Source: Rickettsiales bacterium | Lineage (GTDB): Bacteria; Pseudomonadota; Alphaproteobacteria; Rickettsiales; UBA998 | Reading direction: 5' to 3' | Assembly (NCBI GenBank): GCA_024304995.1 | Contig: JAMWZD010000001.1 | Coordinates: 641,472-705,471, forward strand | DNA: 64,000 bases | Shown: positions 3,067-51,258 of the stretch, one piece after another | How positions within the stretch are numbered: position 1 is the first letter of the stretch | Layout: the number at the start of each line of letters is the position of its first letter | Position numbers and translations under genes: made by a program | Notes under the pieces: generated by a model | Database searches by the model: none | What the model was told of the DNA's origin: nothing | What the model saw: only the letters and a program-made list of their open reading frames with translations

Positions 3067-3094
3067 CTAGCGTGCGCAAAAAAGGAAATTGCTT

Positions 3095-3526: not shown

Positions 3527-3907
3527 TGCATCACCGTAAATGCATCTTTATGAAACAAAACCAGAAAAATCAGTCAGAATTCTCCCTAATTTTTATAAAA
3601 AAAACTCTTTTCAGCAATAAATTGTAAAGAAAACCTGCCAAAACTATACGTTCGTACAGGTGCATATACAGAATATTTATCCTATACTTGAAATATAACC
3701 GCTAGCTTAAACTTTCTTTGATTACTGGACATGTCAAAGAGAATATCATGCAGAAGATACAAGCTTCAAAATTGTATCTTACGCGCATCATGTGGGGAAG
3801 TCAGGTTGTGGGATAGTGATGTTGGTTATGCATATATCCCCTTCCCCCCACACACGGCGAATATCATGGGTAAGAAATTTTCTTGCAGTTAGTTGAAAAA
3901 AGAAAAT

Positions 3908-6013
3908 TTACTCACTCAGCCCCTTCAGCCCCACGCGGACTGTAATGCTGGTATCAGGCTCAAAGTCCCTATCCCTCGTAAACTCTCGTGTCACTTGGGG
4001 GTAAAACGTCACACAGTCATAATTGATAATCGCGCCTGCTCCTGCAATGATCATATCATTATTGAGCAAATCACGCCGTCCGAATGCGCTGAGGGAGAAA
4101 TCGTCTGTGAAGCGCACTGACGCTCCACCTGTGATTTCGTTTCGGTCGCTCAATACCACATCATCCTGAATGCGCAAATGGTCTATGCTGAGTGAACCGC
4201 GCTTGTAATTTGCCAATGCGCGCACTTCGCTTCGGCGGAGTTCTGCATCGTCCGTATCATAACGATAACGATAATCCAGATTGTAAATCCTGTCCTGATA
4301 GCCTACGCGCCCCACCACATCTGAGAAATCGCGTGCAGGTTCATTGCTCAGCGGGAACGGATTGTTGCCGTCAATCTGGAAATTCTGCCCAATCATCCCG
4401 CTGATTTCGCGTCCGTCAGACAGATTCATATGTGCATTGACACCCACCACAGCTCGGCTGCCTTCTTCAATGCGGTCTAAGCCTGCATAACGATTTAAAT
4501 CATACAGATTCAAATCTGAAAATTCAGGCGTCTGGCTGTCTTCATTGCTGATATTTCGGGAGTTATGGCCGCGTGTGCTGGCAATCACCTGCGCCATAGG
4601 CTCCACCACCAAAGACGCGCTGCCCACCTGCGTCATCAACGGGTAGCGCCAGCCAAGTGATGCATGGGGTACAACACGACTTTCCGTGCCGCTAAATTCT
4701 TCTGTGGCGCTCACAGATAAATCACTCTGATTATACACATCCACCCGCGCACCCACTTCACCTTCAAACACATGCCCGCCATCCGTCACATGCGGCACGG
4801 TGTACGCCGCCTGCGTGATTAGGCGGCGCGTATCTGCTCCCAAATCCCGCGTCAGCGACATGGCGTTCATATCTAGTGTCGCTCGCCCGCCGCCTGCTGC
4901 TTTAATCGGGTCACTTTCCAGATGCAGCTTGGCCTGTGGCAGCACAATCGGTTCGCGGTCGGGGTCATCCTGTTCTTCCAGACCCTGAAATGCCAGCCCT
5001 TCCACCACGGCATAATTGCGCCCTTCAATGCGCTCCGTGTAGGCGCGTGAAATGAGCGTATCGAAAAAGCCGAAACGATAGCGCCGTAAATAGGTGTCAT
5101 CCGACGCGCGGTTAATATCAAAGCCCCAGTCCCAATGTTCGCTGAGCTGTTTTTTCCCATCCGCAAAAATATGCCCGCGAAACTCACTTCCTGCAATAAT
5201 GTCGCCTGTGGTTTCATCGCGCTTGTCTGTCACGGTGGCACTGCCTGAAAAATTCATGTAGCCATCATCAAATAGCTGACGATATTCCCCCAGCACCACC
5301 AGCCCTTCTTTGGAGGTCCACCACGGGGTGATAGTGGCATCTTTGTCAGGTGCGATGTTCCAGTAATAAGGCACGCGAATGCTTGCCCCAAGATTGGTGG
5401 ACTGCCCATATTCAGGCATCAGCACCCCGCTTTTTCGGTCTGCATCTGGTGTGGGGTGTGTGAAGTATGGCGTGTAAGCAATCGGCACACCTTCCACTTC
5501 AAACGTGGCATCGCGGTACGTTACGGATTGCTCCTTATCATCAATCGTCACCTTATCAGACTTTATCTGCCATAATGGCGTATCGTCTTCACTACAGATC
5601 TTGCACGGTGAATAAACCGCTTTACTCAGTTGAATTTCTGTTTCCGAAATGCGGCGCGCTTCTGCGGCAGCAAAGGCAGAATTATCTGCCAGTCGTGCGC
5701 GGAACTGTTTTATCACGCCGCGCTTAAACGCATCTTCCAGTTCGACATTATCAGCAAATAATACGTTGCCGTCTGGCTGCATCAGTGAGACATTTCCTGT
5801 TGCTTTCACAACGTCCTGTTGCTGATAATAATATATGGTGTCTGCCAGCAAAATGCGCTCCCCGCGCATGATTTCCACATTCCCTTTGGCGACCACGATT
5901 GCATTATTATTATCATACGCGATCTTATCTGCTTCCATATATACCGCAGGCTCCGCCTGCTGCGCAAACGCAGGCACGGAAAGGGCAAGAAGTGACAGGA
6001 ACAGGGCTTTCAT
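3908..6013 (-). CDS. lptD: LPS-assembly outer membrane protein LptD
   Basis: 701 aa. Signal peptide MKALFLSLLALSVPAFAQQ, OstA-like N-terminus and a long beta-barrel region. Confidence 0.9.
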   Translation of the reverse strand: MKALFLSLLALSVPAFAQQAEPAVYMEADKIAYDNNNAIVVAKGNVEIMRGERILLADTIYYYQQQDVVKATGNVSLMQPDGNVLFADNVELEDAFKRGVIKQFRARLADNSAFAAAEARRISETEIQLSKAVYSPCKICSEDDTPLWQIKSDKVTIDDKEQSVTYRDATFEVEGVPIAYTPYFTHPTPDADRKSGVLMPEYGQSTNLGASIRVPYYWNIAPDKDATITPWWTSKEGLVVLGEYRQLFDDGYMNFSGSATVTDKRDETTGDIIAGSEFRGHIFADGKKQLSEHWDWGFDINRASDDTYLRRYRFGFFDTLISRAYTERIEGRNYAVVEGLAFQGLEEQDDPDREPIVLPQAKLHLESDPIKAAGGGRATLDMNAMSLTRDLGADTRRLITQAAYTVPHVTDGGHVFEGEVGARVDVYNQSDLSVSATEEFSGTESRVVPHASLGWRYPLMTQVGSASLVVEPMAQVIASTRGHNSRNISNEDSQTPEFSDLNLYDLNRYAGLDRIEEGSRAVVGVNAHMNLSDGREISGMIGQNFQIDGNNPFPLSNEPARDFSDVVGRVGYQDRIYNLDYRYRYDTDDAELRRSEVRALANYKRGSLSIDHLRIQDDVVLSDRNEITGGASVRFTDDFSLSAFGRRDLLNNDMIIAGAGAIINYDCVTFYPQVTREFTRDRDFEPDTSITVRVGLKGLSE

Positions 6014-7971: not shown

Positions 7972-9414
7972 ATGACGCAACTTGCCATCTTCATCATCCT
8001 GTATCTCATAGTATCTGCAGGCATTGGTGTCTATGCTGGGTTGCGCGTTAAGAACGCCTCGGACTTTCTGGTCGCGGGGCGTTCTTTGCCTGCTGGAGTG
8101 ACGATTGCCACCGTCTTTGCGACATGGTTTGGCTCCGAAGCAGTGCTGGGCATTCCCGCCACATTCATGGAAGAAGGGCTGGGAGGCATTATTGCAGACC
8201 CGTTTGGCGCGGGGCTGTGTCTGGTGTTTGTGGGTATATTCTTCGCACGCAGACTATACCGCATGAAATTGCTCACCATTGGTGATTTTTTCCGCCAGCG
8301 TTACGGCGCGAAAGTGGAATTGCTGGTGGCACTTGCCATCTGCATCAGCTATCTGGGCTGGGTGTCTGCACAGGTGATTGCGCTTGGTCTGGTGATTAAT
8401 ATCGTCTCCGCAGGAGCGATTTCTGTGTCACTGGGAATGATTCTCGGCATTAGCGCCGTCATGCTCTATACCATCTTCGGGGGCATGTGGTCTGTTGTGA
8501 TAACGGACATGGTGCAAATGCTGATGATTCTTGTTGGGTTGATGGTCGTTGCATTTCTGGTCGCTGATCGTATGGATGGCGGGGCAGAGGCAATCATCCT
8601 CCATGCTCAGGCACAGCAGAAATTTGTGGTGCTTCCAGAGGTCACCTTTGCATCTGCACTGGCGTTATTTGGCAGCTTTATTACACTGGCATTGGGGTCT
8701 ATTCCGCAGCAGGACGTGTTTCAGCGTGTCATGTCTGCCAAAAATGAAGATGTGGCGATGAAAGCCACCGTCACAGGCGGCGCATTTTATATGCTGTTTT
8801 GCTTTATCCCGATTTTCATCACTTACGGTGCGTTATTGCTGGAACCTGAACTGGCGCAGATGCATTTGGGCGAAGATGGTGATGCGCAACGCATTCTACC
8901 AGAATTTATCCTCAACACCACGCCTCTGCCCGTGCAGGTGATTTTCTTTGGTGCATTACTGTCTGCCATCATGTCCACCGCATCAGGCACATTGCTTGCG
9001 CCATCTGCCATTATTGCAGAAAACATCATCAAACCCGCTTTTAATTTAAGTGACACAGCGTTGCTTGTCGCTTTACGAGTGTGCGTTTTTGTTTTTGGAT
9101 TGGTGGTAACGCTCTATGCATATCTCAGCCACAGTGCAGGCTTAAGCATTTTTGAAATGGTGGAAAATGCGTATCTCGTCACTCTATGTGGGGCATTCGT
9201 GCCGCTGGCATTCGGAGTATATTGGAAACATGCCAACACCAGCGGTGCATTATGGTCTATCGCTTTGGGGGTTGGAAGCTGGGTCTGCATGGAAGTCTGG
9301 CAGATTCGTACTGAAGAAACATTGCTCGTGCCACCGCAAGTGACCGGCTTATGCTTTGCGATTATTGGGATGATGGCAGGAAGTTTTCTCAGCAAAAAAC
9401 AAACAATTCGATAA
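7972..9414 (+). CDS. sodium:solute symporter family transporter
   Basis: 480 aa, polytopic. N-terminal VAGRSLP motif typical of the SSF family. Confidence 0.85.
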
Positions 9415-9469
9415 AAATTACATTGCTCGTCGCTTGTCATTTATTGGTGAGCGGCGTATAAGCAATATT

Positions 9470-12034
9470 ATGAGCAATACTGATTTTTTAAACCAATCTG
9501 ACTATGACGCAAAAGCGGCAGAAGCGCATTGGCAGCAGGCATGGGACGAAGCAAAATGCTTTGCCTATAATGATACTGAAACTGACAAGAAGCCGTATTA
9601 CGTGCTGGAAATGTTTCCGTACCCTTCAGGCAATATCCATATGGGTCATGTGCGAAACTACACGCTGGGAGATGTGACCGCACGGTATAACCGCGCCAAA
9701 GGCAATGAGGTGCTGTATCCTATGGGGTGGGACGCGTTTGGTTTGCCAGCAGAAAATGCCGCCATTCAGCGCGGTGCGCACCCTGCAGATTGGACGTATA
9801 ATAATATAGAATCCATGCGTGAACAGCTGAAATCTATGGGGCTATCTTATGACTGGTCACGCGAAGTTAAAACCTGCCACCCTGATTATTATCAGCATGA
9901 ACAGCGTTTCTTTCTGGAGTTTTTAAAACAGGGTTTAGCCTATCGCAAAGAATCGTTTGTAAACTGGGATCCTGTGGACAACACCGTGCTTGCGAATGAG
10001 CAAGTGGTGGACGGCAAAGGCTGGCGCTCTGGTGCGCCTGTGGAGCGCCGCAAGCTGACACAATGGTTTTTGAAGATCACTGAATTTGCAGATGATCTGA
10101 TTGAAGGATTGGACGAACTTTCTGGCTGGCCTGAAAAAGTCCGCATCATGCAGGAACACTGGATTGGTCGTTCTTATGGCTGTGAGATTGATTTCGCGCT
10201 AACTGGTAGTAATGAAGAAATTAAAGTTTATACCACCCGCCCCGATACACTCTTCGGTATGAGTTTTCTTGCTATTTCCGCCAATCACCCATTGGCAGAA
10301 GCGCTTGCAAAAGACAATCCTAAGGTGGCAACTTTCATCGAAGAATGCGCCGCACTGGGAACATCCGAAGAAGCATTGGAAACAGCAGAGAAGAAAGGGC
10401 TTGATACAGGGCTGAAAGTCACCAATCCCTTTAACAATAAAGAATACCCTGTCTATATCGCTAATTTCGTATTGATGGATTATGGCACAGGCGCAGTGTT
10501 TGGCTGCCCTGCACATGACCAGCGCGATTTGGATTTCGCGCGCAAATATGATTTGGAGGTGACGCCTGTTATTGCATCTGATGATGACATTACCGACACC
10601 GCCTTTACAGGCGACGGAACGCTTATCAATTCAGAGTTTCTCAACGGCATGAAAGTGGAGGCTGCCAAAGACGCAGCCATCAAGCGCCTGGAAGAAATGA
10701 GCATTGGCACGCGCAAAACGAATTATCGCCTGCGCGACTGGGGCATTTCGCGCCAGCGTTACTGGGGCTGCCCGATTCCTATTATTTACTGTGACGATTG
10801 CGGTGCAGTACCCGTGCCAGATGATCAGCTTCCTGTTGAACTGCCGAAGGATGTATCATTTGACAAACCTGGCAACCCGCTTGACCATCATCCCACTTGG
10901 AAGCATGTGGACTGCCCAGGTTGCGGCAAAGCGGCTGTGCGCGAAACAGACACATTTGATACCTTCTTTGAATCATCATGGTATTTCGTGCGCTATTGCT
11001 CACCGAATAGTGAGCGCGGCATTGACAAAGCACGCGCGAATCAATGCCTGCCAGTGGATATGTATATTGGCGGCGTGGAACATGCGGTGTTGCATCTGCT
11101 GTATGCTCGCTTTTTCACACGTGCGCTGAATAAGTGCGGATATCTGGATGTGAAAGAACCATTCAAAGGCTTGAAAACGCAAGGCATGGTCACGCATGAG
11201 ACGTACCAAAATGAGCATGATGAGTGGTTATACCCTGAAGATATTGAAAAAGATGATGCTGGGAAATGGCGTTTAACTGCTGAATATTTAGCGAAGCACC
11301 ATATGCGTGATAAGCTGAAAAATTCAAATGTAAATGTTGGACGCATCATTAAAATGAGCAAGTCCAAACATAACACGGTGGACCCGAAACACATCATCGC
11401 AAAATATGGTGCAGATACGGCGCGCCTGTTCATGATGTCAGACTCCCCACCTGAACGTGATATGGAATGGACGGATGCAGGTGTGCAAGGCGCATGGCGA
11501 TATGTCAATAAGCTCTGGCGCATGGTGCAGGCAATTGAACCTGAGAAAGGCGCAGCAAATGCAGAAGTAACCAAGCTGGCGCACAAAACCATCACATTGG
11601 TGGAAGACGCGATCACGCAATTCCAACCTAACAAAGCGGTTGCCTATATTCGTGAACTCACCAATGCGGTGAGTGGCTGCACACCAAATGATCCTGCCTA
11701 TCATTTTGGGCTGAAGATCATCACGCAACTGGTTGCCCCTATCATGCCCCATCTGGCAGAAACCTTATGGCAGAAAATGGGATATGACGGGTTGGTGGCG
11801 CAAACCGCATTCCCCGTTGCAGACCCCGCCATGCTGGTGGATGATACTGTCACCATTGCTGTGCAGGTGAACGGGAAACTGCGCGATACGCTGAATGTGA
11901 AGGCGGATGCAGGCAAGGATGAAATTGAACAGCAGGCACTGGCATTGCCGAAAATTCAGCCTTTCACCGAAGGCAAAACCATTCGCAAAGTGATTGTCGT
12001 ACCAGGGAAGATTGTTAATGTCGTGGCTGCGTAG
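9470..12034 (+). CDS. leuS: leucine--tRNA ligase
   Basis: HIGH-type motif PSGNIHMGH and KMSKS motif. Start trimmed to the ATG at 9470. Confidence 0.97.
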
Positions 12035-14082: not shown

Positions 14083-14670
14083 TTGACTAACAATTCCAAA
14101 AACTTTCATTATACAATAAGTAATATCTTTGAAAACGAATTAAAGATAGATGATCCTGCGTACACTCCAGGAAGTGTGGTAAATTGGATCTTTGAACAAG
14201 CTCGTTTAGACAATATACGTGATATATCAGCAATGAAGTTACAAAAATTACTTTATTTTATGCATGGAAATTATTTAAGATCTTTTAATAAACCTCTAGT
14301 TAATGAATATGCTCAAGCTTGGGACTATGGTCCTGTTTTTCCATCTGTTTATCATGAATATAAAACCAATGGATCTAAAGCTATTCCACTCAATGATATA
14401 AATTTAATGAGAGAATATGACACAAATATCAAAAAGTTTGTTCCGCTAATAGTAAACCGTAATGACAAAGAAACCATAACTATTTTACGAAATACATGGG
14501 AAAAATATAAAGATAAAAGCGCTAGTTATTTATCTGATCTAACTCATAGACCTGATGATGATAACCCTTGGATTATAATAAGAAATATATCTAAAGAAGA
14601 GAAAATATCGAACATATCAACTCCCAATAGCATTATCAAAAAATATTTTGATGAAAATAACGACTTATAG
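14083..14670 (+). CDS. Panacea (DUF4065) domain protein, PanA/SocA-like antitoxin
   Basis: MKLQKLLYFMHGNYL...AQAWDYGPVFPSVYHEYK matches the DUF4065 core. TTG start with a strong RBS. Very AT-rich (13/60 GC in the first 60 nt). Confidence 0.8.
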   Translation: MTNNSKNFHYTISNIFENELKIDDPAYTPGSVVNWIFEQARLDNIRDISAMKLQKLLYFMHGNYLRSFNKPLVNEYAQAWDYGPVFPSVYHEYKTNGSKAIPLNDINLMREYDTNIKKFVPLIVNRNDKETITILRNTWEKYKDKSASYLSDLTHRPDDDNPWIIIRNISKEEKISNISTPNSIIKKYFDENNDL

Positions 14671-14679
14671 TTCAATGTG

Positions 14680-15240
14680 ATGGATGATGAGGAAATAAGA
14701 TTAGAAGAAGAGGCGAAGAAAAATGTTGCTATTGCTTATGGTAATGCACATAGAAACAGAGCTATCACTTTAGGTAAAAGACTAAAATGCTGGTATTATA
14801 TAATTGTTGGTGAAGTAATCTTATTAATTGCATCTTTTTTTGTATATAACTGTTTGTTCACAAAAAGCATTAACACAATTAAAGAAAGTCTATGCGAAGC
14901 AAAGTATTGTTACTTAGAAGCATCACAGATTCTCACAGTTTACTATATAGGGAAAGCTAGTTTTGTAAGTACTTTTATAATAATATTAATATGGACACTT
15001 AAACGTGTTACTCGTTTACAAGCTATGAGAATGATTCACTCAGACAAAGCCGTCATGGCAAACACTTTACAAACACTATTAGGTACAGAATTAGATAAAA
15101 ATTCAATTTTACGTCAAGCAACCAAAAATATGTTTAGCTCTTCTTTCGAAGTCATAAATACAAAAAAGAAAAACAAATCTTCTGAAATTATAGAATTAAA
15201 GGAATTATTGAATACTTTACTAAAAGAAAAAGAGGATTAA
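14680..15240 (+). CDS. hypothetical two-TM protein, candidate toxin partner of the Panacea protein
   Basis: Starts 10 nt after the upstream stop. Two TM helices (WYYIIVGEVILLIASFFVY and FVSTFIIILIWTL) and a charged coiled-coil-like tail. No recognisable family. Confidence 0.5.
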   Translation: MDDEEIRLEEEAKKNVAIAYGNAHRNRAITLGKRLKCWYYIIVGEVILLIASFFVYNCLFTKSINTIKESLCEAKYCYLEASQILTVYYIGKASFVSTFIIILIWTLKRVTRLQAMRMIHSDKAVMANTLQTLLGTELDKNSILRQATKNMFSSSFEVINTKKKNKSSEIIELKELLNTLLKEKED

Positions 15241-24920: not shown

Positions 24921-27900
24921 ATGAAATTAGCCGACTTGTATACAACAACCTGCCTTAGTGCCGTTCTGCTCAGCATGACATGTGCAGGCACGGTGCTGGC
25001 TGCCCCTGAAGGCGCGCAGGTTGCTGCTGGTTCAGCCAATATAAGTTCACCCCAGTCAGGGCATGTGGTAATTCAACAGCACACAGATAAAGCTGTAATC
25101 AACTGGAACCAGTTTGATATTAAGGCAGGAGAACATACAGAATTTCGCCAGCCCTCTCAAAATGCATCCACCTTAAACCGAATTAAAGGGAACGCACCAA
25201 GCAACATCAATGGCAGATTAACTGCCAATGGCAATATTGTTGTGGTGAATCCTCATGGTGTGGTGTTTGGAAAGAATGCCAAAGTGGATGTGGGCGGGCT
25301 GGTTGCCAGCACAGCCGACATTGCTGATGAGAATTTCATGAAAGGCACACTGGGTTTTGACCGCCCTGGCAAAGCAGATGCAGCCATCATCAATCATGGT
25401 GTGATTACCGCAAAAGATGCAGGACTGGTAGGGTTGGTAGCACCGCACGTGGAAAATCATGGTACGATACAGGCAAGATTAGGAAAAATAGTTTTGGCAT
25501 CAGGTGAAACAGCAACAGTTGATATGCACGGAGACGGGTTAATTCAGGTTGCTGCAAGCGGAGACAGCAAAAAACTGCTTGTTTCGCAGCAGGGAACGTT
25601 ACTTTCAGAAGGCGGCACTATTGCATTGACTGCAGCAGATGGCCGCAACATGCTTGACAGCCTGATTCAGGCAGATGGAGCATTATCAGCTGCTTCTATC
25701 CAGCATTCTGGTGGCAGAATTGTGATTACAGGTCAGGATAGCGATATAGAAGTAAATGCTGATATGGATGTTTCTGGTATGGATAAGGCTGGAAGCCTAT
25801 ATATTGGCGGGGATTTTAAGGGCAATGGCACATTACCCACCGCCAGAAATGTAACGCTAAACAAGGATGCTGTCATACGCGCAAATGTGAGAGGCGATGG
25901 CAAAGGCGGCACGGTGATCGTCTGGTCAGACGAACAGACAAGATTTGCTGGCACAATTGAAGCAAAAGGGAGCGCAGGCGGTTTTGTTGAAACATCAGGT
26001 AAACAAAAGCTGAACATTGCTGATTCTGCATCTGTGGATACGCAAAATGGCACATGGCTCCTGGATCCTCAGGATTTTACCATCGCAGATTCTGGTGGAG
26101 ACATGACGCCAGCTGCATTGCAGACCAATCTGGCAAGTAACAATGTCACCATTACCAATGCAGCAGGTGCAGGGAACGGTGACATCACCATATCAGATGC
26201 AGTTAGCTGGAGCAGCAGCAACACGCTGACACTGGATGCCATCCGCCACGTTCAGGTGGATGATGCCATCAGCAACAGCGCAGGGGGTAATCTGATTTTG
26301 CGAGCAGATAAGAATGGCACTGGCACGGGAACAGTCAATTTTGGTGGCGGTGGGTCTGTCAGCATGAATACGGGGCGTAGTGATATATATTATAATCCCA
26401 CCAGCTACACCACACCAACCAATTATGCAGCGAATGTGACAGGCACGTTTGATGCATGGATGTTAGTGCATGATGTGAATGATTTGCAGGATATCAGTGG
26501 CAATAAAAGCGGTAATTATGCACTCAGCAAAGATATTGATGCCAGCGCAACAACGGGTTGGAATGGTGGTTTAGGGTTCAATGCGATTGGGTTCAGCGGT
26601 AGCGAATTTACTGGAAAATTTAACGGTCAGAATTTTGCTATTAATAACTTATTTATCAACCGTCCTTCTCAGGGCAATCTGGGTATGTTTGGCGGCATTG
26701 ACAGCGCAGAAATTAAAAATGTGCGTGTATTATCCGCAAACATTACTGGTCAGGATGATACTGGCATATTAGCGGGCGATGTTGAGCAATCCACCATAAC
26801 TAACGTGCATACCTCAGGTAATGTTACTGGAAACATTAGTGTTGGCGGTCTTATTGGTGAAGCTTCAGACAGCACCACTATCACTCAGTCATCTTCCGCA
26901 GCAAATGTTTCAGGCAATGGTGAAGTGGGCGGACTTATTGGTGACCACGAAATGGCATCTTCAACCAGCAATAGTTTTGCCACAGGAAACGTAACATCCG
27001 CAGGAGATAATATCGGCGGACTCATTGGTAATAATGACAGCGTTACCGTGTCCGATAGTTATTCTACGGGATCTGTTACAGGAAATTACCGCGTTGGTGG
27101 TTTGGTAGGTGAAAACAGCACAAATTCCACAATAACCAATAGCTATTCTACATCCAATGTAAATGCCGATAGAAATGTAGGCGGTTTAACAGGAGACAAT
27201 AACAATAACTCCACCATTACGAACAGTTATGCAACAGGCATCATTACAGCAGGCGACGACAACGCAGGAGGGTTGGTGGGTCTCTTAAGTGGCAATTCAA
27301 CCATTACTACCAGCTATGCAACTGGTAATGTAAGCGGAGAAGATGATGTTGGCGGTTTGGTTGGGGATTCAGAAGGCACCATTTCCAACAGCTACGCTAC
27401 GGGAAGCGTTACTGCAAGAGACAATGTGGGTGGTTTTGCAGGAAGACATGATAATGGGGCAACAACGTCAAATAGTTATGCACTCGGCAATATATCTGGA
27501 AGAGATAATGTTGGCGGGTTTATAGGTCTTAATGACAGCGCAACGTCTACGAATAATTACGCCACGGGTACGGTATCTGGAAGAAATTCAGTTGGCGGTC
27601 TGGTTGGTAGCAACGCTGGCACGTCCTCAGTCACTCAAAGTTATGCAACTGGCAATATCACTGCCACTGCTGGCTCACTGAGTATTGGAGGGTTAGTAGG
27701 GGAACATAAAGATAACGCAACCATAACTTCCAGTTATGCGACGGGAGACATTTCGGGTGATGGTGACTGTGTAGGTGGATTGGTTGGTTGGGCAATGGAC
27801 AATGCACGCACAGAAACAAGTTTCTCAACAGGTAACATTACAATAGGAGCGGGAAGAAATATTGGTGGCCTAACAGGGTTAGTTTCGAACGATACTGTCA

Positions 27901-28907
27901 CGCTCAACAGTTACGCAACAGGTATAGTGAATGGTGATGATGATGTTGGCGGACTAGTTGGGGAAATGAGAGAAAATGCAGTTTTAAACTTTGTATATTC
28001 AACTGGGCAGGTTTCAGGGAATACAGATGTTGGTGGCTTAATCGGGCTACGCGCCAATGCATCCAGTGTCACCAATGGATATTGGAATGTGACCACATCA
28101 GGGCAGGCAACCAGCAACGCAGGTACGGAAACAGGGCTGACCACAGCACAAATGATGGACGCGGCATCTTTCACAGGATTTGACATTGCCACAACAGGTG
28201 GCAGCTCCAATGTATGGCGCATTTATGAAGGTAACACTGCCCCATTACTGCGATCTTTTTTAACGCCGCTTAACGTAAAAGCGAATGATGCTACAATGAC
28301 ATTCAATGGCAGTGCTTACAATGGTAGCGAAGGGGTAACTTATACCACCTTCAACACGGGCGATAATAGCAGCAATTTACTGGGAACACTAGATTATGGC
28401 AGCTCTGATACAGATATTGGAACGTATGTTTTAACGCCAAGCGGTTTGTATGATGACCAATTCGGATATGATATTAGTTACAGCACAGGAACATTAAACA
28501 TTACTGTTGCACCACCTGCACCTTCTGCACCAACAATACAGCCAACATCACCAAAAACCAAAGTGCCGACAACTGTTCCAGAAACCACTCCTCCATCATC
28601 ACCTCAGACATTACCAGCGCCTGAGACTCCTGTGGTTCAAACGCCCCCCACTTCCAAACCAGAATCAAAGCCTCGCTCCACATCAATTCCCACAACGGTA
28701 GAAATTGTATCGCAAAAGCCAGCCCCTGAAAGCAACGGAACTGCTTCAGTTGCAAAAGGCACGCAGCGTTCACCCCAGCACACTTCGTCAAATAAGATGA
28801 TTTTTGTTGAAACAGATGAGACCAGCAATGCAACCTCTAAAGGGGATATTATAATCAGCAAACCGCTTGCAAAAATGCTTAATCTGACCCGCTCATTATT
28901 TGATTAA
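24921..28907 (+). CDS. TPS-domain (filamentous haemagglutinin N-terminal) exoprotein with GLUG repeats and a Pro-rich tail
   Basis: Signal peptide. TPS motifs INWNQFDI and VVNPHGVVFG. About 16 GLUG-type repeats (VGGLVG). C-terminal P/T/S-rich segment. Confidence 0.85.
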   Translation: MKLADLYTTTCLSAVLLSMTCAGTVLAAPEGAQVAAGSANISSPQSGHVVIQQHTDKAVINWNQFDIKAGEHTEFRQPSQNASTLNRIKGNAPSNINGRLTANGNIVVVNPHGVVFGKNAKVDVGGLVASTADIADENFMKGTLGFDRPGKADAAIINHGVITAKDAGLVGLVAPHVENHGTIQARLGKIVLASGETATVDMHGDGLIQVAASGDSKKLLVSQQGTLLSEGGTIALTAADGRNMLDSLIQADGALSAASIQHSGGRIVITGQDSDIEVNADMDVSGMDKAGSLYIGGDFKGNGTLPTARNVTLNKDAVIRANVRGDGKGGTVIVWSDEQTRFAGTIEAKGSAGGFVETSGKQKLNIADSASVDTQNGTWLLDPQDFTIADSGGDMTPAALQTNLASNNVTITNAAGAGNGDITISDAVSWSSSNTLTLDAIRHVQVDDAISNSAGGNLILRADKNGTGTGTVNFGGGGSVSMNTGRSDIYYNPTSYTTPTNYAANVTGTFDAWMLVHDVNDLQDISGNKSGNYALSKDIDASATTGWNGGLGFNAIGFSGSEFTGKFNGQNFAINNLFINRPSQGNLGMFGGIDSAEIKNVRVLSANITGQDDTGILAGDVEQSTITNVHTSGNVTGNISVGGLIGEASDSTTITQSSSAANVSGNGEVGGLIGDHEMASSTSNSFATGNVTSAGDNIGGLIGNNDSVTVSDSYSTGSVTGNYRVGGLVGENSTNSTITNSYSTSNVNADRNVGGLTGDNNNNSTITNSYATGIITAGDDNAGGLVGLLSGNSTITTSYATGNVSGEDDVGGLVGDSEGTISNSYATGSVTARDNVGGFAGRHDNGATTSNSYALGNISGRDNVGGFIGLNDSATSTNNYATGTVSGRNSVGGLVGSNAGTSSVTQSYATGNITATAGSLSIGGLVGEHKDNATITSSYATGDISGDGDCVGGLVGWAMDNARTETSFSTGNITIGAGRNIGGLTGLVSNDTVTLNSYATGIVNGDDDVGGLVGEMRENAVLNFVYSTGQVSGNTDVGGLIGLRANASSVTNGYWNVTTSGQATSNAGTETGLTTAQMMDAASFTGFDIATTGGSSNVWRIYEGNTAPLLRSFLTPLNVKANDATMTFNGSAYNGSEGVTYTTFNTGDNSSNLLGTLDYGSSDTDIGTYVLTPSGLYDDQFGYDISYSTGTLNITVAPPAPSAPTIQPTSPKTKVPTTVPETTPPSSPQTLPAPETPVVQTPPTSKPESKPRSTSIPTTVEIVSQKPAPESNGTASVAKGTQRSPQHTSSNKMIFVETDETSNATSKGDIIISKPLAKMLNLTRSLFD
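26673..28080 (+). repeat. coding tandem repeats (~28-30 aa GLUG units)
   Basis: Units of the form NSYATGNVSGxxxVGGLVGxxxxxSTIT recur about 16 times. Confidence 0.8.
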
Positions 28908-32526: not shown

Positions 32527-32712
32527 AGCGTGAGCCTATAGGACATCAGCGCGTCTGTCTATGCTAGGTCCTTACTATTATAATTTGACAGCAAATAAAT
32601 AATGTAACATTTATGTATCTCCCAACTATACATCAACAGTGCTAACTTGCTTGCAACATGGCTGCATAATATTACATTAGCTTTTTCAAACATAATAGTA
32701 TTCAATAATAAT

Positions 32713-33846
32713 ATGAGATTAAATTCGCTTTACATAAATAACTTCAAATGCCTACAAGATTTCACCATTGAGCAGCTGGGCAATGTGAATCTCATTGTAG
32801 GTCAAAATAATATTGGTAAGACTACAATCCTTGAAGCTATACGCTTATATGCAACGAATCCACGAGGTGGTTTGAGGAATTTAATTGCGAAAATAAGTGA
32901 AGAACATGATGAGTTTCTTTATGAAGAAGACCCTGAATATAATCGGCGTTATCGAGCAATAAATTTTGAGTCCCTTTTTTACAATCGATGCTTCCCCGAA
33001 TCAAACGAAGATTCTATTGAAATTGGCTCAGTAAGAAACGGTCAAGACTCTCTGATCATAAAAGAAGCATTCCAGCGTGTCTATGTTAAAGCTGATGAAC
33101 CTGATACGATAGTCAAAGAAATTATTGAGAAAGAGGAGATCGATAATATAATTGATGATGCTGTTGAGCAGAATATTTTAGCAACAAAAAATGGGAAATC
33201 CGTAATATTAAACGTAGTTGAACGTTTACTCCCCATGAGGCACAGGCTAAGTACTATCTCACATTTTGATGATATTCCTTGTAAATATATTCCTACACAG
33301 CTTCTACACCAAAATGATTTAGCTAACGAATGGGATGACATTGTCATTACTTCGTATGAAGAAAAAATACTCAATGCTATAAAAATTCTCGAAAATAATC
33401 TTGAGCAAATTGCGGCAATTAAAAATCATCGTGATGACAGAACCTTCAAATTAAAAACAAAACAGAGTGAAAACATTCCTCTAGCTAGTATGGGAGATGG
33501 CGTTTTTAGAATTTTGCAGTTAGCAATTAAAGCGGTAAAAGCGCAAGATGGCTTTTTACTTGTTGATGAATTTGAGAATGGACTACATTACAAAACTCAA
33601 TATAAAGTCTGGAAATGGTTGTTTGAGCTATCTCAAGAACTCAACATTCAAATCTTTGCAACCACACATAGTTGGGACACCATAGAAAGCTTTTCAAAGG
33701 CTGCTCACGATAATACTAATGTACAAGGAAGTTTGTTCAGAATAGCTAAAAGTTTGAAAGAGGCAGATAATAATAAAATTATAGCTACTACTTTTAATGA
33801 AGACAGCTTAAAAACCATTACTCAACAACAAGTTGATGTAAGATGA
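32713..33846 (+). CDS. ABC/SMC-type AAA ATPase (AAA_15/21-like)
   Basis: Walker A GQNNIGKTT, signature-like SMGDG, Walker B LLVDEFENGLH and H-loop ATTHS. AT-rich (18/60 GC in the first 60 nt). Confidence 0.8.
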   Translation: MRLNSLYINNFKCLQDFTIEQLGNVNLIVGQNNIGKTTILEAIRLYATNPRGGLRNLIAKISEEHDEFLYEEDPEYNRRYRAINFESLFYNRCFPESNEDSIEIGSVRNGQDSLIIKEAFQRVYVKADEPDTIVKEIIEKEEIDNIIDDAVEQNILATKNGKSVILNVVERLLPMRHRLSTISHFDDIPCKYIPTQLLHQNDLANEWDDIVITSYEEKILNAIKILENNLEQIAAIKNHRDDRTFKLKTKQSENIPLASMGDGVFRILQLAIKAVKAQDGFLLVDEFENGLHYKTQYKVWKWLFELSQELNIQIFATTHSWDTIESFSKAAHDNTNVQGSLFRIAKSLKEADNNKIIATTFNEDSLKTITQQQVDVR

Positions 33847-34493
33847 TTAATAATCCCAAATTGCTTATTGTCGAAGGAAGTTCAGATAAAGCATTTTTCA
33901 AAAGCGTATTAAAAAGTATAGAAATTGACGCCGAAATTATGGTTGCATACCCATCCGAAACGGGGACAGTTGACGGTAACGGGAAAGGCAATGCTATAAA
34001 AACGCTAGTGTTAAGAGCAAAACTTCATAATATTGAACCTGTGCAAACAGGCATAATTTTAGATGCTGATCTCACAACAAAAAAACAAGGATTTGAAAAA
34101 ACCAAATATGCCGTTAAATCTGCCATAGAACCATTCTTTAATATTACCAATGAAACCACTACTGACGGAATTATCTTTCATGGTGAAGCAGGCATTACAC
34201 CGATTGGTTTGTGGATAATGCCTTCAAATAGTGAAGACGGCAATTTAGAAGATTGGATTGTGAAGAATCTTAACAACACTGAAATAAGCAAACACCAAAT
34301 TGCTAAAAAATTGTTAGATGACTTGGATGACTCAATCAAAGAATTTCAATTACATCATCTGAGCAAAGCAGAGCTACTTACTATGCAGGCTTGGAAAAAC
34401 AGACCCAAAAGCACATGTTCAGTCAATCAGATTAATACGCAAAATCAGGATTACAAAAGTCTGGTCACTTGGTTTAAGAAGATCTTTGACTAA
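33843..34493 (+). CDS. TOPRIM-like (DUF4435/RloB/DUF3226-type) protein
   Basis: ATGA overlap with the ATPase gene. N-terminal LLIVEGSSDKAFF and GIILDADL resemble the TOPRIM Glu and DxD motifs. Confidence 0.55.
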   Translation: MINNPKLLIVEGSSDKAFFKSVLKSIEIDAEIMVAYPSETGTVDGNGKGNAIKTLVLRAKLHNIEPVQTGIILDADLTTKKQGFEKTKYAVKSAIEPFFNITNETTTDGIIFHGEAGITPIGLWIMPSNSEDGNLEDWIVKNLNNTEISKHQIAKKLLDDLDDSIKEFQLHHLSKAELLTMQAWKNRPKSTCSVNQINTQNQDYKSLVTWFKKIFD

Positions 34494-34759
34494 TACTGAA
34501 GCTCATCCTCATCTTCTGCCGCGCCTTCATCTTCCACGTCGATTTCGCGCAGCATCACTTCGCCAAGGGCGCGGGCGGTGGCGTTTCTGGGGTTGCCGTC
34601 CATCGGGCCCATCTCACCAAACATCTGCCCAATCCCCAATATGGCAAGCACGCCTTCCCCTTTACGGCTGATCTCCACGCGCCCGCTTTCAATAACGTAG
34701 GCTTTTTCAGCCTTGTCACCTTCATAAAAGATGATATCACCATAAAAGAACTGCACCAT
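34490..34759 (-). CDS. stand-alone minimal cyclic nucleotide-binding domain protein with acidic tail
   Basis: 89 aa from the ATG at 34759. FGEMGPM...RNATARAL, then DVEDEGAAEDEDELQY. Confidence 0.5.
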   Translation of the reverse strand: MVQFFYGDIIFYEGDKAEKAYVIESGRVEISRKGEGVLAILGIGQMFGEMGPMDGNPRNATARALGEVMLREIDVEDEGAAEDEDELQY

Positions 34760-34772: not shown

Positions 34773-35741
34773 TTATGCCACCAGCATAGACAGAGATGAA
34801 GCCGACCGCGCGCCAAGCTGCGCAATGATGTGCGCTGCCATACGATGCCCAAGCCTTGCGCTCTGATCCAGCGACATGGCGTTGGTAATGCCATATAAAA
34901 ACCCTGCGGCAAACAAGTCACCTGCGCCTGTGCTGTCCACCAGATTCACAGGCACAGTTTCAACATTATGCTCCTGTCCACCTGCATATATGGTTGCAGG
35001 GTGCGCACTATGGGTTACCACCGCAATATCCAGATGGCGCATCAGATTATCCACGATATTCGCACCATATAGCGCCTGAATTTCTCCGCCATTGGCAAAT
35101 AATATGTCAATATGATCTGCTATCAGCTCCTGAAATTCTGTTTTGTGGCGATCTACGCAGAACGTGTCAGAAAGGGTAAATGCTACTTTTACACCTGCTT
35201 CCTTGGCGCTGTGCATGGCATATAAAATAGCATCTTTTGCCTGTGGTGCATCCCATAAATATCCTTCAATATAGAGAATTTTCGCGGCTGCAATCATCTC
35301 TGCATCAATATCATCGCGGGAGAGTTCTGCACATGCACCAATATGCGTATTCATGGTGCGTTGTCCGTCTGGCGTAACGCAGACCACGCAACTGGCTGTT
35401 GGCTCACCATCAGTAGCAGGTGTTGTGTGATATGCCACACCAATATTGCGCATGTCATCTGCAAATATTGCGCCTAAATCATCATCTGCAACGCGTCCGA
35501 TGTAACCGCAATGCGCTCCCAGATCTGCCAGTCCTGCCATCGTGTTTGCCACCGAGCCACCTGAACATACGCGCGCGCCGTTTAGTTCTCCGCGCAGTGC
35601 AGCACTTTGTGATGCGTCTATCAGCTGCATTCCCCCTTTGGGCATATTGTTGCGTTTTAAGAAGCCTTCATCCACATGCACCAGATAATCAACGATGGCA
35701 TTGCCTATGCCCACTACGTCATATTGTGAATGTTGAGCCAT
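34773..35741 (-). CDS. PfkB-family carbohydrate/adenosine kinase
   Basis: VVGIGNAIVDY N-terminus and DSTGAGDLFAAGFLYG C-terminal motif. Confidence 0.85.
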   Translation of the reverse strand: MAQHSQYDVVGIGNAIVDYLVHVDEGFLKRNNMPKGGMQLIDASQSAALRGELNGARVCSGGSVANTMAGLADLGAHCGYIGRVADDDLGAIFADDMRNIGVAYHTTPATDGEPTASCVVCVTPDGQRTMNTHIGACAELSRDDIDAEMIAAAKILYIEGYLWDAPQAKDAILYAMHSAKEAGVKVAFTLSDTFCVDRHKTEFQELIADHIDILFANGGEIQALYGANIVDNLMRHLDIAVVTHSAHPATIYAGGQEHNVETVPVNLVDSTGAGDLFAAGFLYGITNAMSLDQSARLGHRMAAHIIAQLGARSASSLSMLVA

Positions 35742-48481: not shown

Positions 48482-50200
48482 ATGAACACCAACGTAGAAC
48501 ACCTCCAGCAAGAACAACTCAGCGCATCCGACCCCTATCGCAGGACAGAGCAGACCTACCCGCATTTGGATGATGCGATGATAGACCGCATCCGCGCTTA
48601 TGGTACTGAATGCAATTACAGCAAAGGCGATATTCTGTTTGAGCGCGGTGAATGTGAGGTGGATTTTTTCGTGGTGCTGGACGGTAGCATTGAGATTTAC
48701 GAACATCAGAGTGGTGGCACGCGCGTTATCACCTCCCATTGTGAAAAGCAATTTACGGGTGAACTGGATTTGTTCAATGCACGGCAGATTCTGGTCGGTG
48801 GACGCATGGGCAAGGACGGGCGCGTGATTCGTGTGAACCGTGCAGCGTTCAAACGCATGTTGGCATCTGAAGCAGATATTAGCGAGATCATCACCCGCGC
48901 CTTCATTTTGCGTCGTGTGGGGTTGATTTCTCATAAGCAAGGCTCGGTCACCTTGCTGCGCAATTCAGAAAATTCGGATGCGATTCGCATTGAACGCTTC
49001 ATCAAACGCAATGGTTACCCTGTGGAAGTGGTGGATTGCTCAAGCGAGGAATGTCAGGATTATTACGAGAAATATGATCTGGATGAAAGCGCGCTGCCTG
49101 CGGTGATTATTCATCTGGGTGAGCGTGTGGTTTCCAACCCTACCAATTTCCAACTGGCGGAATGTCTGGGCTTGGTCGAGCCGATTGATTCTGACCATCT
49201 CTATGATGTGGCAATTGTCGGCGCAGGGCCAGCGGGCTTGTCTGCTGCGGTTTATGCTGCGTCCGAAGGGCTGGACACGATCGTGCTGGAAAATGAAGCA
49301 GCTGGCGGGCAAGCCAGCACCAGCTCGAAGATTGAGAATTATCTTGGTTTCCCCACAGGCATTTCTGGGCAAGCGCTGGCTGGGCGTGCGCAGGTGCAGG
49401 CGATGAAGTTCGGCGCGAAAATTGCGCTGCCTCATAAAATCAAAGAACTCACCTGCACAGGCGCAGGGTACGCGCTGCATTTGTGCAATGGCTCCACCAT
49501 CCGCGCCAAAGCCGTGGTGGCTGCCACAGGCGCAAGCTACCGCACATTGAATCTACCCAACGCTCGGGAATATGACAATATCGGTGTATATTACGGCGCA
49601 ACAGGCATGGAAGCAGGACTTTGCGCTGGTCAGGAAGTGATTGTGGTTGGCGGAGGCAACTCGGCGGGGCAAGCAGCAGTCTATCTCTCCCAACACGCAA
49701 AACATGTCTATATGCTGATTCGTGGAGAATCCTTAGCGAGCAGCATGTCTTCTTACCTGATTGAGCGGATTGAGAACTCGAAACATATCACCTTACTGAA
49801 CCACACCGAAATCACCAAGCTGGAAGGTGACCACCATTTGAGCCATGTGACGTGGACGAACAATCAGACCAAACAATCTGAACGTAAGGATATTCGTCAC
49901 GTATTTTTGATGATTGGGGCAACACCCAATTCAGACTGGATTGCACATCAGGTGATGTGTGATGAAAAAGGGTTTATTCTCACTGGTGAAGGCGTAACCA
50001 AACATGGCGAATGTTTTGACGGACGCGCACCAATGGCGCTGGAAACCAGTAAGGCTGGCATTTTTGCGGCAGGTGATATACGCTCAGGTTCTACCAAACG
50101 GGTGGCATTTGCTGTAGGCGATGGTTCACTCAGCATCACACAAGTGCATCAATATCTGGCAGATTTCAACCTGCGCCAGAATGCAAAGGAGGCAGCATGA
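48482..50200 (+). CDS. cNMP-binding domain + thioredoxin-fold linker + thioredoxin-reductase-like flavoprotein lacking CxxC
   Basis: cNMP roll at the N-terminus. GAGPAGLSAA and GGGNSAGQAA dinucleotide motifs. GATGMEAGLC occupies the position of the canonical CATC. Confidence 0.8.
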   Translation: MNTNVEHLQQEQLSASDPYRRTEQTYPHLDDAMIDRIRAYGTECNYSKGDILFERGECEVDFFVVLDGSIEIYEHQSGGTRVITSHCEKQFTGELDLFNARQILVGGRMGKDGRVIRVNRAAFKRMLASEADISEIITRAFILRRVGLISHKQGSVTLLRNSENSDAIRIERFIKRNGYPVEVVDCSSEECQDYYEKYDLDESALPAVIIHLGERVVSNPTNFQLAECLGLVEPIDSDHLYDVAIVGAGPAGLSAAVYAASEGLDTIVLENEAAGGQASTSSKIENYLGFPTGISGQALAGRAQVQAMKFGAKIALPHKIKELTCTGAGYALHLCNGSTIRAKAVVAATGASYRTLNLPNAREYDNIGVYYGATGMEAGLCAGQEVIVVGGGNSAGQAAVYLSQHAKHVYMLIRGESLASSMSSYLIERIENSKHITLLNHTEITKLEGDHHLSHVTWTNNQTKQSERKDIRHVFLMIGATPNSDWIAHQVMCDEKGFILTGEGVTKHGECFDGRAPMALETSKAGIFAAGDIRSGSTKRVAFAVGDGSLSITQVHQYLADFNLRQNAKEAA

Positions 50201-51258
50201 CCAAGAAAATCAACCTTGCCCTGCAAGGCGGCGGCGCACATGGCGCGTTCACATGGGGCGTGATTGACAAAATCCTCGAAGATGGAAGGCTGGAAATTGA
50301 TGGACTTTCTGCCACTTCTGCAGGCGCAATGAATGCCGCAGTCTATGCATATGGCAAAATGCAGGGCGGCAATGACGGCGCACGGCAGGCATTGCATGAT
50401 TACTGGTCAGATATTGCAAGCGCGGGAAAGATATATTCTCCCATAAAACGCAGTCCATTCGAAGCGATGATATTTGGCTGGCATGATCTGGATCATTCGC
50501 TCAGCTATCAGGCGTTTGACAATTTTGTGCGTATGTTCTCACCTTATCAGTTCAACCCGCTGAACATCAATCCGCTGAAAGAGATTATTCAGAAACATGT
50601 GGATTTTGATGCGCTACATGAATGTGAATGCGTAAGATTATTCATCTGCGCCACTAATGTGAAAACCAATCGCATCAAAGTGTTCAAGAACGAAGAAGTC
50701 AGTGCAGACGCTGTGATGGCATCTGCGTGTTTGCCAACATTGTTTCAGGCGGTGGAAGTGGATGGTGAATATTACTGGGATGGCGGCTATATGGGCAACC
50801 CCGCCATATATCCATTATTTTATCATACCAGCACGGATGATATGGTGGTGGTGCATATTAACCCGATTGAACGGAAAGACATCCCCACCGAACCGCATGA
50901 TATTTTAAACCGCGTTAATGAAATCAGCTTTAATTCGTCGTTGCTGCGTGAGTTCCGCGCCATTGCATTTATTCAGAAAATGCTGGATGAAGGCTGGATT
51001 AAAGATGAATTTCGTGACCAGATCACGCATCAGAAATTCTTTATGCATTCCATCCGTTCAGACAACGCCATGTCTGGCTACACCGTTGCATCAAAATTCT
51101 CCCCCGACTGGGACTTCCTCACCCATCTGCGTGACAAAGGGCGGCAGGAAGCAGAGTGCTGGCTGGACAAGAATTATGACTGCATCGGCAAGCGTTCCAC
51201 GGTGGATTTAAAATCAGATTATGTGGATGAAGAAAAGCGCACGGTGAAAGCTGCATAA
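50197..51258 (+). CDS. patatin-like phospholipase
   Basis: GGGAHGAF oxyanion motif, ATSAG nucleophile elbow and DGGYMGN Asp motif. ATGA overlap with the upstream gene. Confidence 0.85.
   Translation: MTKKINLALQGGGAHGAFTWGVIDKILEDGRLEIDGLSATSAGAMNAAVYAYGKMQGGNDGARQALHDYWSDIASAGKIYSPIKRSPFEAMIFGWHDLDHSLSYQAFDNFVRMFSPYQFNPLNINPLKEIIQKHVDFDALHECECVRLFICATNVKTNRIKVFKNEEVSADAVMASACLPTLFQAVEVDGEYYWDGGYMGNPAIYPLFYHTSTDDMVVVHINPIERKDIPTEPHDILNRVNEISFNSSLLREFRAIAFIQKMLDEGWIKDEFRDQITHQKFFMHSIRSDNAMSGYTVASKFSPDWDFLTHLRDKGRQEAECWLDKNYDCIGKRSTVDLKSDYVDEEKRTVKAA

Follow-up and report, generated by a model that had tools for sequence, protein, structure and literature searches.

A divergent PDC-M38-type ABC-ATPase/DUF3226 gene pair, predicted to act in defence, among core genes of a Rickettsiales bacterium

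A low-GC gene pair encodes an ATPase and a DUF3226 protein

We analyzed a 64,000-nucleotide stretch of the genome of a Rickettsiales bacterium of the UBA998 lineage (contig JAMWZD010000001.1 of assembly GCA_024304995.1, positions 641,472 to 705,471 of the forward strand), referred to here as the window, with coordinates counted from its first letter. Near its centre lie two overlapping genes on the same strand, gene 1 and gene 2, which encode an ATP-binding cassette (ABC) ATPase and a DUF3226 protein with a TOPRIM-like signature. By sequence comparison, the pair is a new, very divergent copy of a candidate family already catalogued in the PADLOC database as PDC-M38. A first-pass annotation, made from the DNA letters and predicted translations, had proposed a two-gene defence-type module in which an ABC ATPase is paired with a TOPRIM-like protein at this position, and the motifs, family matches and predicted fold described below support that proposal. 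The features of the locus are as follows.

32570..32712, + strand: AT-rich leader with which the low-GC island begins on its left side; presumed to hold the cassette promoter
ATG 32713 to TGA 33846, + strand: gene 1, 377 amino acids; ABC-type ATPase (OLD/AAA_15-21 family), PDC-M38A component, presumed sensor/regulator
33843..33846, + strand: ATGA junction, an overlap of the gene 1 stop codon and the gene 2 start codon; sequence AAGATGATTAA
ATG 33843 to TAA 34493, + strand: gene 2, 216 amino acids, 24 kDa; DUF3226, PDC-M38B component; TOPRIM-like putative metal-dependent nuclease, presumed effector
34490-34759, - strand: cyclic nucleotide monophosphate (cNMP)-binding open reading frame (ORF), 89 amino acids with an acidic tail; stand-alone domain between gene 2 and the pfkB kinase gene

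Both ORFs and their ATGA overlap were present as first described, and the overlap implies translational coupling of the two genes. A longer, TTG-initiated ORF for gene 1 starting at 32647 is not supported, as the alignment with the PDC-M38A profile begins at residue 1 of the ATG-initiated form.

Analysis of base composition revealed a sharply bounded low-GC island of about 1.9 kb (32570-34495), made up of the gene pair and its leader of about 140 nt, with a GC content of 0.341 compared with a window mean of 0.456 (standard deviation 0.036, windows of equal size). At the left edge the GC content drops from 0.48 to 0.25 between 32540 and 32580. The right edge coincides with the last codons of the cNMP-binding ORF, which is convergent with the pair; its TAG stop (34490-34492) overlaps the TAA stop of gene 2 (34491-34493). 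The AT-richness claimed earlier from 18 G+C in the first 60 nt of gene 1 was confirmed by our count. G+C content at third codon positions (GC3) was 0.28 and 0.32 for genes 1 and 2, respectively, compared with 0.43-0.61 for putA, the cNMP-binding ORF, pfkB, clpA and clpS. Together with the distance of both proteins from their nearest homologs, the overall GC content and GC3 suggest that the two-gene cassette is of foreign origin and was acquired horizontally. The leader, which is also upstream of the divergently transcribed putA, may contain the cassette promoter. A consensus promoter scan of the leader gave only weak matches (9 of 12) at 32683-32712 with no enrichment over shuffled sequences, and in the combined promoter and terminator scan no signal rose above the shuffled-sequence level.

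Gene 1 resembles OLD/AAA_15-type ABC ATPases

The annotation had proposed profile hidden Markov model searches of both proteins; against Pfam and PADLOC these placed AAA_15, AAA_21 and DUF3226 above their cut-offs and matched PDC-M38A and PDC-M38B over their full length. For gene 1, the strongest match was PDC-M38A (PDLC04611; E = 1.7e-120, with residues 1-377 spanning all 383 profile positions), followed by AbiLi (PDLC02336; E = 1.9e-52, residues 4-377 against 3-340 of 340). The AriA, GajA, Old, PtuA and mad3 models of PADLOC matched far more weakly or in part. The Pfam matches were AAA_15 (E = 2.2e-30, 106.9 bits versus a cut-off of 32.1) and AAA_21 (E = 5.9e-19, 69.7 bits versus 27), and the best sequence match in PDB was OLD 6P74 (E = 8.9e-6). 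The N-terminus resembles RecF, Rad50 and SMC-type models (TIGR00611, 1.3e-11, below its cut-off; RecF in PDB, 5e-4); no NCBIfam model reached its cut-off with gene 1.

A search of a large protein collection identified 2584 homologs of gene 1 at E <= 1e-5, the nearest of which was 45% identical. The best 120 of these are all 361-431 amino acids long and come from bacteria and archaea. The four ATPase motifs named in the annotation are all present, and alignment of the 120 homologs revealed conservation of their key residues at a level of at least 95%.

32800..32826, + strand: Walker A/P-loop GQNNIGKTT, residues 30-38; G30, N32, N33, G35 and K36 at least 95% conserved
33487..33501, + strand: ABC signature-like SMGDG, residues 259-263; S259, G261, D262 and G263 at least 95% conserved
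33556..33588, + strand: Walker B and D-loop LLVDEFENGLH, residues 282-292 with catalytic D285/E286; 10 of 11 positions at least 95% conserved, V284 being the exception
33658..33672, + strand: H-loop ATTHS, residues 316-320 with H319; all five positions at least 95% conserved

Residues from about 106 to 189 were almost without conservation in the same alignment. This combination of conserved motifs and a variable middle fits a constant ATPase engine carrying a variable insert. Judged by its motifs and family matches, gene 1 is an intact OLD/AAA_15-type ABC ATPase.

Gene 2 carries the acidic signature of a TOPRIM domain

Gene 2 matched Pfam DUF3226 (PF11536; E = 1e-30, 107.5 bits versus a cut-off of 27, with all 208 profile positions covered by residues 5-216) and PDC-M38B (PDLC04623; E = 8e-48, residues 6-215 against 4-218 of 219). 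The family matches of both genes are far beyond chance. The two motifs on which a TOPRIM assignment had been based, LLIVEGSSDKAFF and GIILDADL, are both present; among the families then suggested for gene 2, DUF3226 was borne out, whereas neither DUF4435 (PF14491) nor RloB (PF13707) matched at E <= 1. Weaker PADLOC matches were obtained with mad4 (3.4e-4) and AriB (E = 0.0034, residues 7-83).

An exhaustive HMMER search recovered 416 clusters of gene 2 homologs (50% identity level, E <= 1e-3), the nearest 34-37% identical, and a word-seeded search returned gene 2 itself only. Nearly all of the best 150 of the 416 clusters are 200-255 amino acids long, and the few shorter ones look like fragments. 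A length of 216 amino acids is thus the family norm and reflects no truncation, so that the earlier suggestion of a shortened or minimal AriB does not hold.

Alignment of 61 family members identified seven invariant residues (L8, E11, G12, D15, D74, E136 and W210) and a further set conserved in at least 90% of sequences (D76, G122, W124, M126, P127, K175, W181, W184 and Q185). The acidic positions are placed as follows in the sequence and in the predicted structure.

33873..33887, + strand: TOPRIM motif 1, EGSSD, with E11, G12 and D15; end of strand beta-1 and start of helix alpha-1
34062..34070, + strand: TOPRIM motif 2, DAD, with D74 and D76; end of strand beta-3 (strand 68-74)
34248..34250, + strand: E136, the invariant fifth acidic residue; start of the helix after strand beta-4

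We used an AlphaFold model of gene 2 built from the 61-sequence alignment (pLDDT 94.5, pTM 0.90) in place of the single-sequence model (pLDDT 37.6). The order of elements in the model is beta-1 (6-9), alpha-1, beta-2 (32-35), alpha-2, beta-3 (68-74), alpha-3, a hairpin and beta-4 (121-126), followed by a helical C-terminal part. E11 lies directly after beta-1 and D74/D76 at the end of beta-3, which is the TOPRIM arrangement; a check for a TOPRIM fold that had been set beforehand found the acidic signature and, in the model, a TOPRIM-like fold. Foldseek comparison with PDB ranked the C-terminal TOPRIM region of Xanthomonas OLD highest (6NJX and 6NJV, probability 0.91-0.92), and the comparison with AriB of PARIS, called for in the annotation, yielded the third-best match (8UX9_A, probability 0.75); the remaining matches had a probability of 0.28 or lower. 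No meaningful match was detected among viral structures.

When gene 2 was used as a single sequence to search PDB, no match was obtained. The DUF3226 family profile reached AriB (E = 4e-4) and PH0156, with the profile segment LLVEGesD aligned to LLVEGRHD of AriB, so that E11 and D15 correspond to AriB E26 and D30, and G12 to G27. The acidic set of AriB consists of E26, D30, D88, E90 and E122, and the E26A substitution abolishes PARIS defence (PMC11464382). By its place in the order of residues, E136 may be the equivalent of AriB E122. Within the set of 61 family members, weak matches were seen to OLD-like_TOPRIM (33 members, best 3e-4), AriB (26), mad4 (13) and HEC-01B (2); unrelated families were each matched by one member only. 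From the conserved residues and the predicted model we conclude that DUF3226 is in all likelihood a remote TOPRIM-type domain whose metal-binding signature is complete, and gene 2 would be expected to have nuclease activity.

The pair is near-obligate and occurs in defence-type contexts

To describe the pair in other genomes, loci of relatives were gathered by exact look-ups, a scan of viral contigs and a scan of metagenomes (80 loci), and association with defence genes was sampled in about 60 loci. A gene-1-family ATPase was found directly upstream on the same strand in 67 of the 69 DUF3226 genes with at least 900 nt of upstream sequence; of the remaining two, one looks like a start-call problem and one like a frameshift. 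The genes met in a 1-nt overlap at 32 junctions, in a 4-nt overlap at 21, and with a gap of 0 to +5 nt at a further 21. Pairing of the ATPase with DUF3226 is therefore near-obligate and accompanied by translational coupling.

Relatives of the pair are embedded in BREX loci between the PglX methyltransferase gene and PglZ in Methylobacter psychrophilus, in a Giesbergeria metagenome-assembled genome (MAG) and in metagenome contigs (loci L004, L007 and L008/9, respectively), and PglZ lay immediately downstream of the pair in 6 of 57 loci, PglX immediately upstream in 5 of 47. A P2-like prophage carries the pair beside the integrase, with Mrr-like nuclease and Schlafen/AlbA_2 genes, ahead of gpD/gpU; this was the only viral contig with the pair, and none was found in GenBank phages. 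Eight plasmids also carry it. Most are small; on a 6.4-kb ColE/MOBQ Citrobacter plasmid no other cargo accompanies the pair, and another copy is found on a 9.7-kb Acinetobacter tet(39) plasmid. The RefSeq names of the plasmid-borne proteins are 'ATP-binding protein' and 'DUF3226 domain-containing protein'. Further copies are inserted into core operons with no mobility gene, as in hisG-pair-hisD (hisD downstream in 4 loci) and guaA-pair-Fic. Toxin-antitoxin (TA) or defence-type genes near the pairs in the sampled loci were HipA, PIN, Fic and Uma2. Overall the neighbours were heterogeneous, with 95 Pfam families among 104 proteins. These contexts describe an accessory cassette of sporadic occurrence that is repeatedly associated with BREX, prophage and plasmids, as opposed to the housekeeping locus conserved across the clade that the annotation had named as the contrary outcome.

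Two of the loci contain additional pairs. In the Giesbergeria BREX locus, a second AAA_15 ATPase of 400 amino acids and a coupled 250-amino-acid protein with no Pfam match (6862-8813 of L007) are located immediately upstream of the AAA_15 and DUF3226 genes, with a HipA-type pair further upstream; this BREX system may hold a tandem array of different ATPase-effector dyads. One metagenome contig (L005) carries two ATPase and DUF3226-type pairs 5 kb apart (2823-4420 and 9024-10666), one of them, a weaker second pair, between mlaF and mlaE, and the other in the hisG/hisD interval, accompanied by two Uma2 genes and a PIN gene. Insertions at the hisG/hisD junction are also seen in other lineages, and core operons of the hisG/hisD and mla types seem to act as hotspots for small cassettes with no mobility genes.

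The copy in the window belongs to the core-operon class of insertion. It had been placed between putA and a kinase gene, which was correct on the putA side; on the other side the cNMP-binding ORF precedes the pfkB kinase gene (34773-35741). The neighbours are a large predicted adhesin, a NUDIX protein and putA to the left of the pair, and the cNMP-binding ORF, pfkB, clpA, clpS, an ORF of unknown function and a MauE/glutaredoxin gene to the right. The cNMP-binding ORF spans positions 7-80 of the 89-position Pfam domain, and its truncation by the insertion can therefore not be claimed. The statement that no mobility gene is present held for 28.9-40.2 kb, where ORFs of at least 60 amino acids were scanned with Pfam, and for 40-64 kb, where reading the translations of ORFs of at least 155 amino acids revealed no integrase, transposase or obvious defence gene, positions 1-9 kb being outside this gene-by-gene check. 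No tRNA gene was found in the 64-kb window. The pair has no convincing flanking direct or inverted repeats; the only perfect inverted pair, of 12 nt (32554/34783), is close to chance expectation.

Relationship to known ATPase/TOPRIM systems

On profile evidence, the cassette is a divergent member of the PADLOC candidate PDC-M38: both components match over their full length, they are adjacent on one strand in the order A then B, and relatives are embedded in BREX, which is how PDC-M38 was defined. It differs in its divergence (nearest homologs 45% identical for gene 1 and 34-37% for gene 2) and in standing alone among core genes. PDC-M38 is listed in the supplementary cassette table of the study that introduced these candidates (10.1101/2024.01.29.577857).

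The module shares the architecture of PARIS and AbiL, and probably their logic, but is a member of neither; the label 'PARIS/AbiL-like' in the annotation was thus apt for architecture and not for membership. In PARIS, as here, an ABC ATPase gene is followed by a TOPRIM gene, the ATPases share AAA_15/21-type motifs, the EGxxD motif of gene 2 aligns with E26/D30 of AriB, and among the fold matches AriB ranks third. In contrast, gene 2 belongs to DUF3226 and not to DUF4435, its similarity to the AriB family ends after about 45 residues, and the two proteins have 377 and 216 amino acids compared with 55 kDa and 35 kDa for AriA and AriB. The AriA model (PDLC02979) covers residues 1-160 of gene 1 only. 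We also compared the pair with an AAA-ATPase and its DUF4435 partner from a Pseudoalteromonas replicon. An hhalign comparison of the DUF3226 profile with this DUF4435 protein aligned 43 N-terminal columns only (probability 49%, E = 1.7e-4), and BLASTP of gene 1 against the DUF4435-partnered AriA-type ATPase aligned the P-loop and the signature/Walker B/H-loop segments only. Membership in PARIS was rejected: the pair has no DUF4435 effector and no AriA-type ATPase of about 55 kDa with hexameric-scaffold insertions. A further mark of PARIS is its triggering by anti-restriction proteins such as Ocr, followed by tRNA-Lys cleavage.

With AbiL of Lactococcus and RloAB-type pairs the module shares the type of ATPase, gene 1 matching AbiLi over its full length. 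AbiLii is likewise a small TOPRIM/OLD-like protein, and its reported best fold match, 6NJV (PMC13064643), is also at the top of the list for gene 2. Membership was rejected here as well, the ATPase being of the AbiLi type but gene 2 giving no AbiLii or RloB match at E <= 1; a single one of the 61 DUF3226 family members touches RloB, at 0.033. The OLD and GajA proteins belong to the same ATPase superfamily (the GajA and Old models of PADLOC match gene 1 at 1e-15 to 1e-18), and the OLD TOPRIM region gives the best fold matches of gene 2, but in these proteins ATPase and TOPRIM are fused in one polypeptide whereas the pair has two separate ORFs. Gabija additionally has the GajB helicase, while the genes adjoining the pair are putA, the cNMP-binding ORF and pfkB, with no helicase. 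Separate ORFs and the lack of an adjacent helicase rule out OLD class 1, OLD class 2 and Gabija. Weak matches were also seen to MAD3-MAD4 of MADS (mad3 1.8e-16 with gene 1, mad4 with gene 2) and to HEC-01 (HEC-01A 8.6e-15 with gene 1, HEC-01B in two of the 61 family members). All of these lie far below the PDC-M38 matches, and MAD3/4 act in a larger methylation-associated system.

Proposed function and alternative explanations

In PARIS, six AriA subunits hold three AriB subunits, and ATP-dependent detection of a foreign protein frees AriB, which dimerises and cleaves tRNA-Lys (PMC11464382). According to a 2026 review, whether ATPase and TOPRIM systems beyond PARIS, such as AbiL and RloAB, work in a PARIS-like manner is still to be determined (PMC13064643). 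For the pair in the window we favour, as the probable explanation, an autonomous module of the abortive-infection type in which the variable insert of the ATPase serves to sense an infection cue and ATP drives the release or activation of the DUF3226 TOPRIM nuclease. The ATGA overlap would lead to production of ATPase and nuclease in a fixed proportion, and the two would form a complex that keeps the nuclease inactive. The ATPase would detect an infection cue by way of its weakly conserved middle part (residues of about 106-189), and ATP binding or hydrolysis would then free or activate the nuclease. The nuclease would cut nucleic acid of the host or phage, either RNA or tRNA as AriB does or DNA as OLD and GajA do, and production of phage would be halted. 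Following the logic of ABC-ATPase/TOPRIM systems, the pair would most likely be directed against phages or mobile elements.

Several points weigh against this explanation. The PDC systems, 145 in number, were identified as genes within BREX, DISARM or type I restriction-modification loci and then entered into PADLOC as untested candidates (Payne et al. 2024, 10.1101/2024.01.29.577857), a full-text literature search found no main-text mention of DUF3226, PF11536 or PDC-M38, and HEC-01, a related ATPase and TOPRIM pair, provided no defence in the assays used (10.1101/2024.01.29.577857). No Pfam TOPRIM family is above threshold for gene 2; OLD-like_TOPRIM matches it at E = 0.066 and 14.2 bits against a cut-off of 23.2, and the top three Foldseek matches are weak globally (E 3.5e-3 to 4e-2, TM 0.32-0.37). 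In the window, as in most sampled loci, housekeeping genes surround the pair and no further defence gene adjoins it, so that the local context alone gives no defence signal. An empty site was found in no relative: searching the GTDB species genomes with the pfkB kinase gave one distant relative (39% identity) with no synteny, a scan of JGI metagenome contigs with PutA gave no relative at the sensitivity of that scan, and the sole match in an exact look-up of the kinase was a 1.96-kb contig with the same arrangement as here. The insertion is accordingly deduced from composition only.

If the module were instead a selfish addiction cassette of the TA kind, the toxic component would be the DUF3226 nuclease, neutralised by the ATPase, and the pair would be retained through the harm that its loss does and would stabilise plasmids or genomic segments with no meaningful anti-phage benefit. 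A tiny self-contained cassette that sits in or between core operons with no mobility genes, or forms the sole or main cargo of small plasmids, would suit this explanation, as would the frequent TA-type neighbours HipA, PIN and Fic, the description of PARIS in E. coli as similar in its behaviour to a type II TA system (PMC13064643), and a second putative TA cassette, of the Panacea type, in the same window. However, the repeated, position-specific embedding between PglX and PglZ and the placement among prophage defence cargo argue for defence, and a 377-amino-acid ATPase with intact motifs would be an expensive antitoxin unless it also sensed something. TA behaviour and abortive infection are moreover not mutually exclusive, which makes the addiction cassette, unlikely in our estimate, more a sub-case than a true alternative to an abortive-infection module. 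We rate it as less probable still that the pair is an accessory or back-up effector layer that depends on BREX, with the copy in the window an orphan that is non-functional or marginally functional for want of its partner. The PglX-pair-PglZ arrangement does occur in three independent lineages, and PglZ and PglX are the commonest immediate neighbours. A 2026 survey reports at least 1242 taxa in which OLD-type ABC ATPases, paired with a TOPRIM or another nuclease, lie within or beside BREX, and proposed that such dyads form a back-up suicidal effector layer (PMC12839542). Yet about 90% of the sampled pairs have no immediate BREX neighbour (51/57 downstream, 42/47 upstream), and pairs that stand alone on 6-14 kb plasmids or in core operons argue for autonomy. 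Both ORFs in the window are intact with every catalytic residue, which would not be expected of a useless orphan, and no BREX gene was seen in the 64-kb window, its top PADLOC families not including PglZ, PglX or BrxC.

A housekeeping function in DNA repair or recombination, with the pair working like RecF (ABC ATPase) and RecR (TOPRIM) or like SbcCD, we regard as very improbable. It would account for the resemblance of the gene 1 N-terminus to RecF, Rad50 and SMC-type models and for the core genes in the local neighbourhood, and RecR is a TOPRIM protein (Aravind et al. 1998, as cited in PMC11464382). The NCBIfam repair-family matches, however, are all far under their cut-offs and confined to the P-loop region, and nothing ties gene 2 to RecR, since its Pfam matches are DUF3226 and the sub-threshold OLD-like TOPRIM only. 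The foreign composition, the sporadic distribution over bacteria, archaea, plasmids and a prophage, and insertion sites that are unrelated between genomes also argue against it.

We put forward one further idea tentatively, as one that we consider somewhat doubtful: DUF3226 pairs might be a mechanistically distinct, minimal branch of ABC-ATPase/TOPRIM immunity that acts autonomously wherever it is inserted, with the copy in the window coming from a deep, unexplored lineage. Its 24-kDa effector would consist of a TOPRIM core and a conserved Trp-rich C-terminal helical domain (K175, W181, W184, Q185 and W210), and would differ from PARIS, OLD and Gabija in substrate, oligomeric state and trigger.

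These analyses turn two ORFs that would be labelled 'hypothetical' or DUF3226 into a specific prediction, a sensor ATPase with a TOPRIM nuclease, and the survey adds for the DUF3226 family a five-residue acidic TOPRIM signature that maps onto the catalytic residues of AriB. They also describe a tiny cassette that spreads with no mobility genes of its own into BREX loci, prophage cargo regions, small plasmids and core operons such as hisG/hisD. If a role in defence is borne out, the pair would be a named addition to the ABC-ATPase/TOPRIM defence systems and would bear on whether all ATPase and TOPRIM pairs use the sequester-and-release mechanism of PARIS. Novelty is lowered by the presence of the family in PADLOC as PDC-M38, and as the ATPase/TOPRIM class is well known, the window brings no conceptual surprise.

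Other features of the window and its host

In a set of about 15 billion proteins clustered at 90% identity, the kinase, gene 1 and gene 2 each stand as singletons. For the pfkB kinase, the best relative in GTDB is 39% identical and comes from an alphaproteobacterial MAG. The host appears to be very poorly sampled.

Single-protein PADLOC matches are scattered elsewhere in the window, none of them within 28.9-40.2 kb. They include PDC-M37B (5e-39), PDC-S07 (7e-32), TIR-type effector models (1e-12), HerA (with a Pfam HerA_C match of 4.7e-220), DolB and phospholipase effectors. For gene 2, ClpA and the MauE-like protein, exact look-ups gave no record with precomputed annotation. At a guess, the DolB match may be ClpA and the phospholipase matches a patatin-like gene at 50197-51258. 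About 4 kb upstream of the module, a gene on the + strand (24921-28907) encodes a secreted repeat protein of 1328 amino acids with an N-terminal two-partner secretion (TPS) domain and many GLUG-type repeats. The TPS (1.9e-35) and Glug (2.9e-35) matches were obtained in a window-wide Pfam search and assigned to this gene by reading its translation; the protein would be a two-partner-secretion adhesin.

At 14083-14670 (+ strand) lies a gene for a SocA/Panacea antitoxin-domain protein (PF13274, 2.8e-20), followed after 7 nt by an ORF of 187 amino acids with no Pfam match (14677-15240, + strand). These two genes are located between leuS-lptE-holA and a DUF3429 gene and lie in the lowest-GC stretch of the window (about 0.33). 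From its sequence, the 14083-15240 segment looks like a Panacea-type toxin-antitoxin pair and a second small foreign cassette between core genes.

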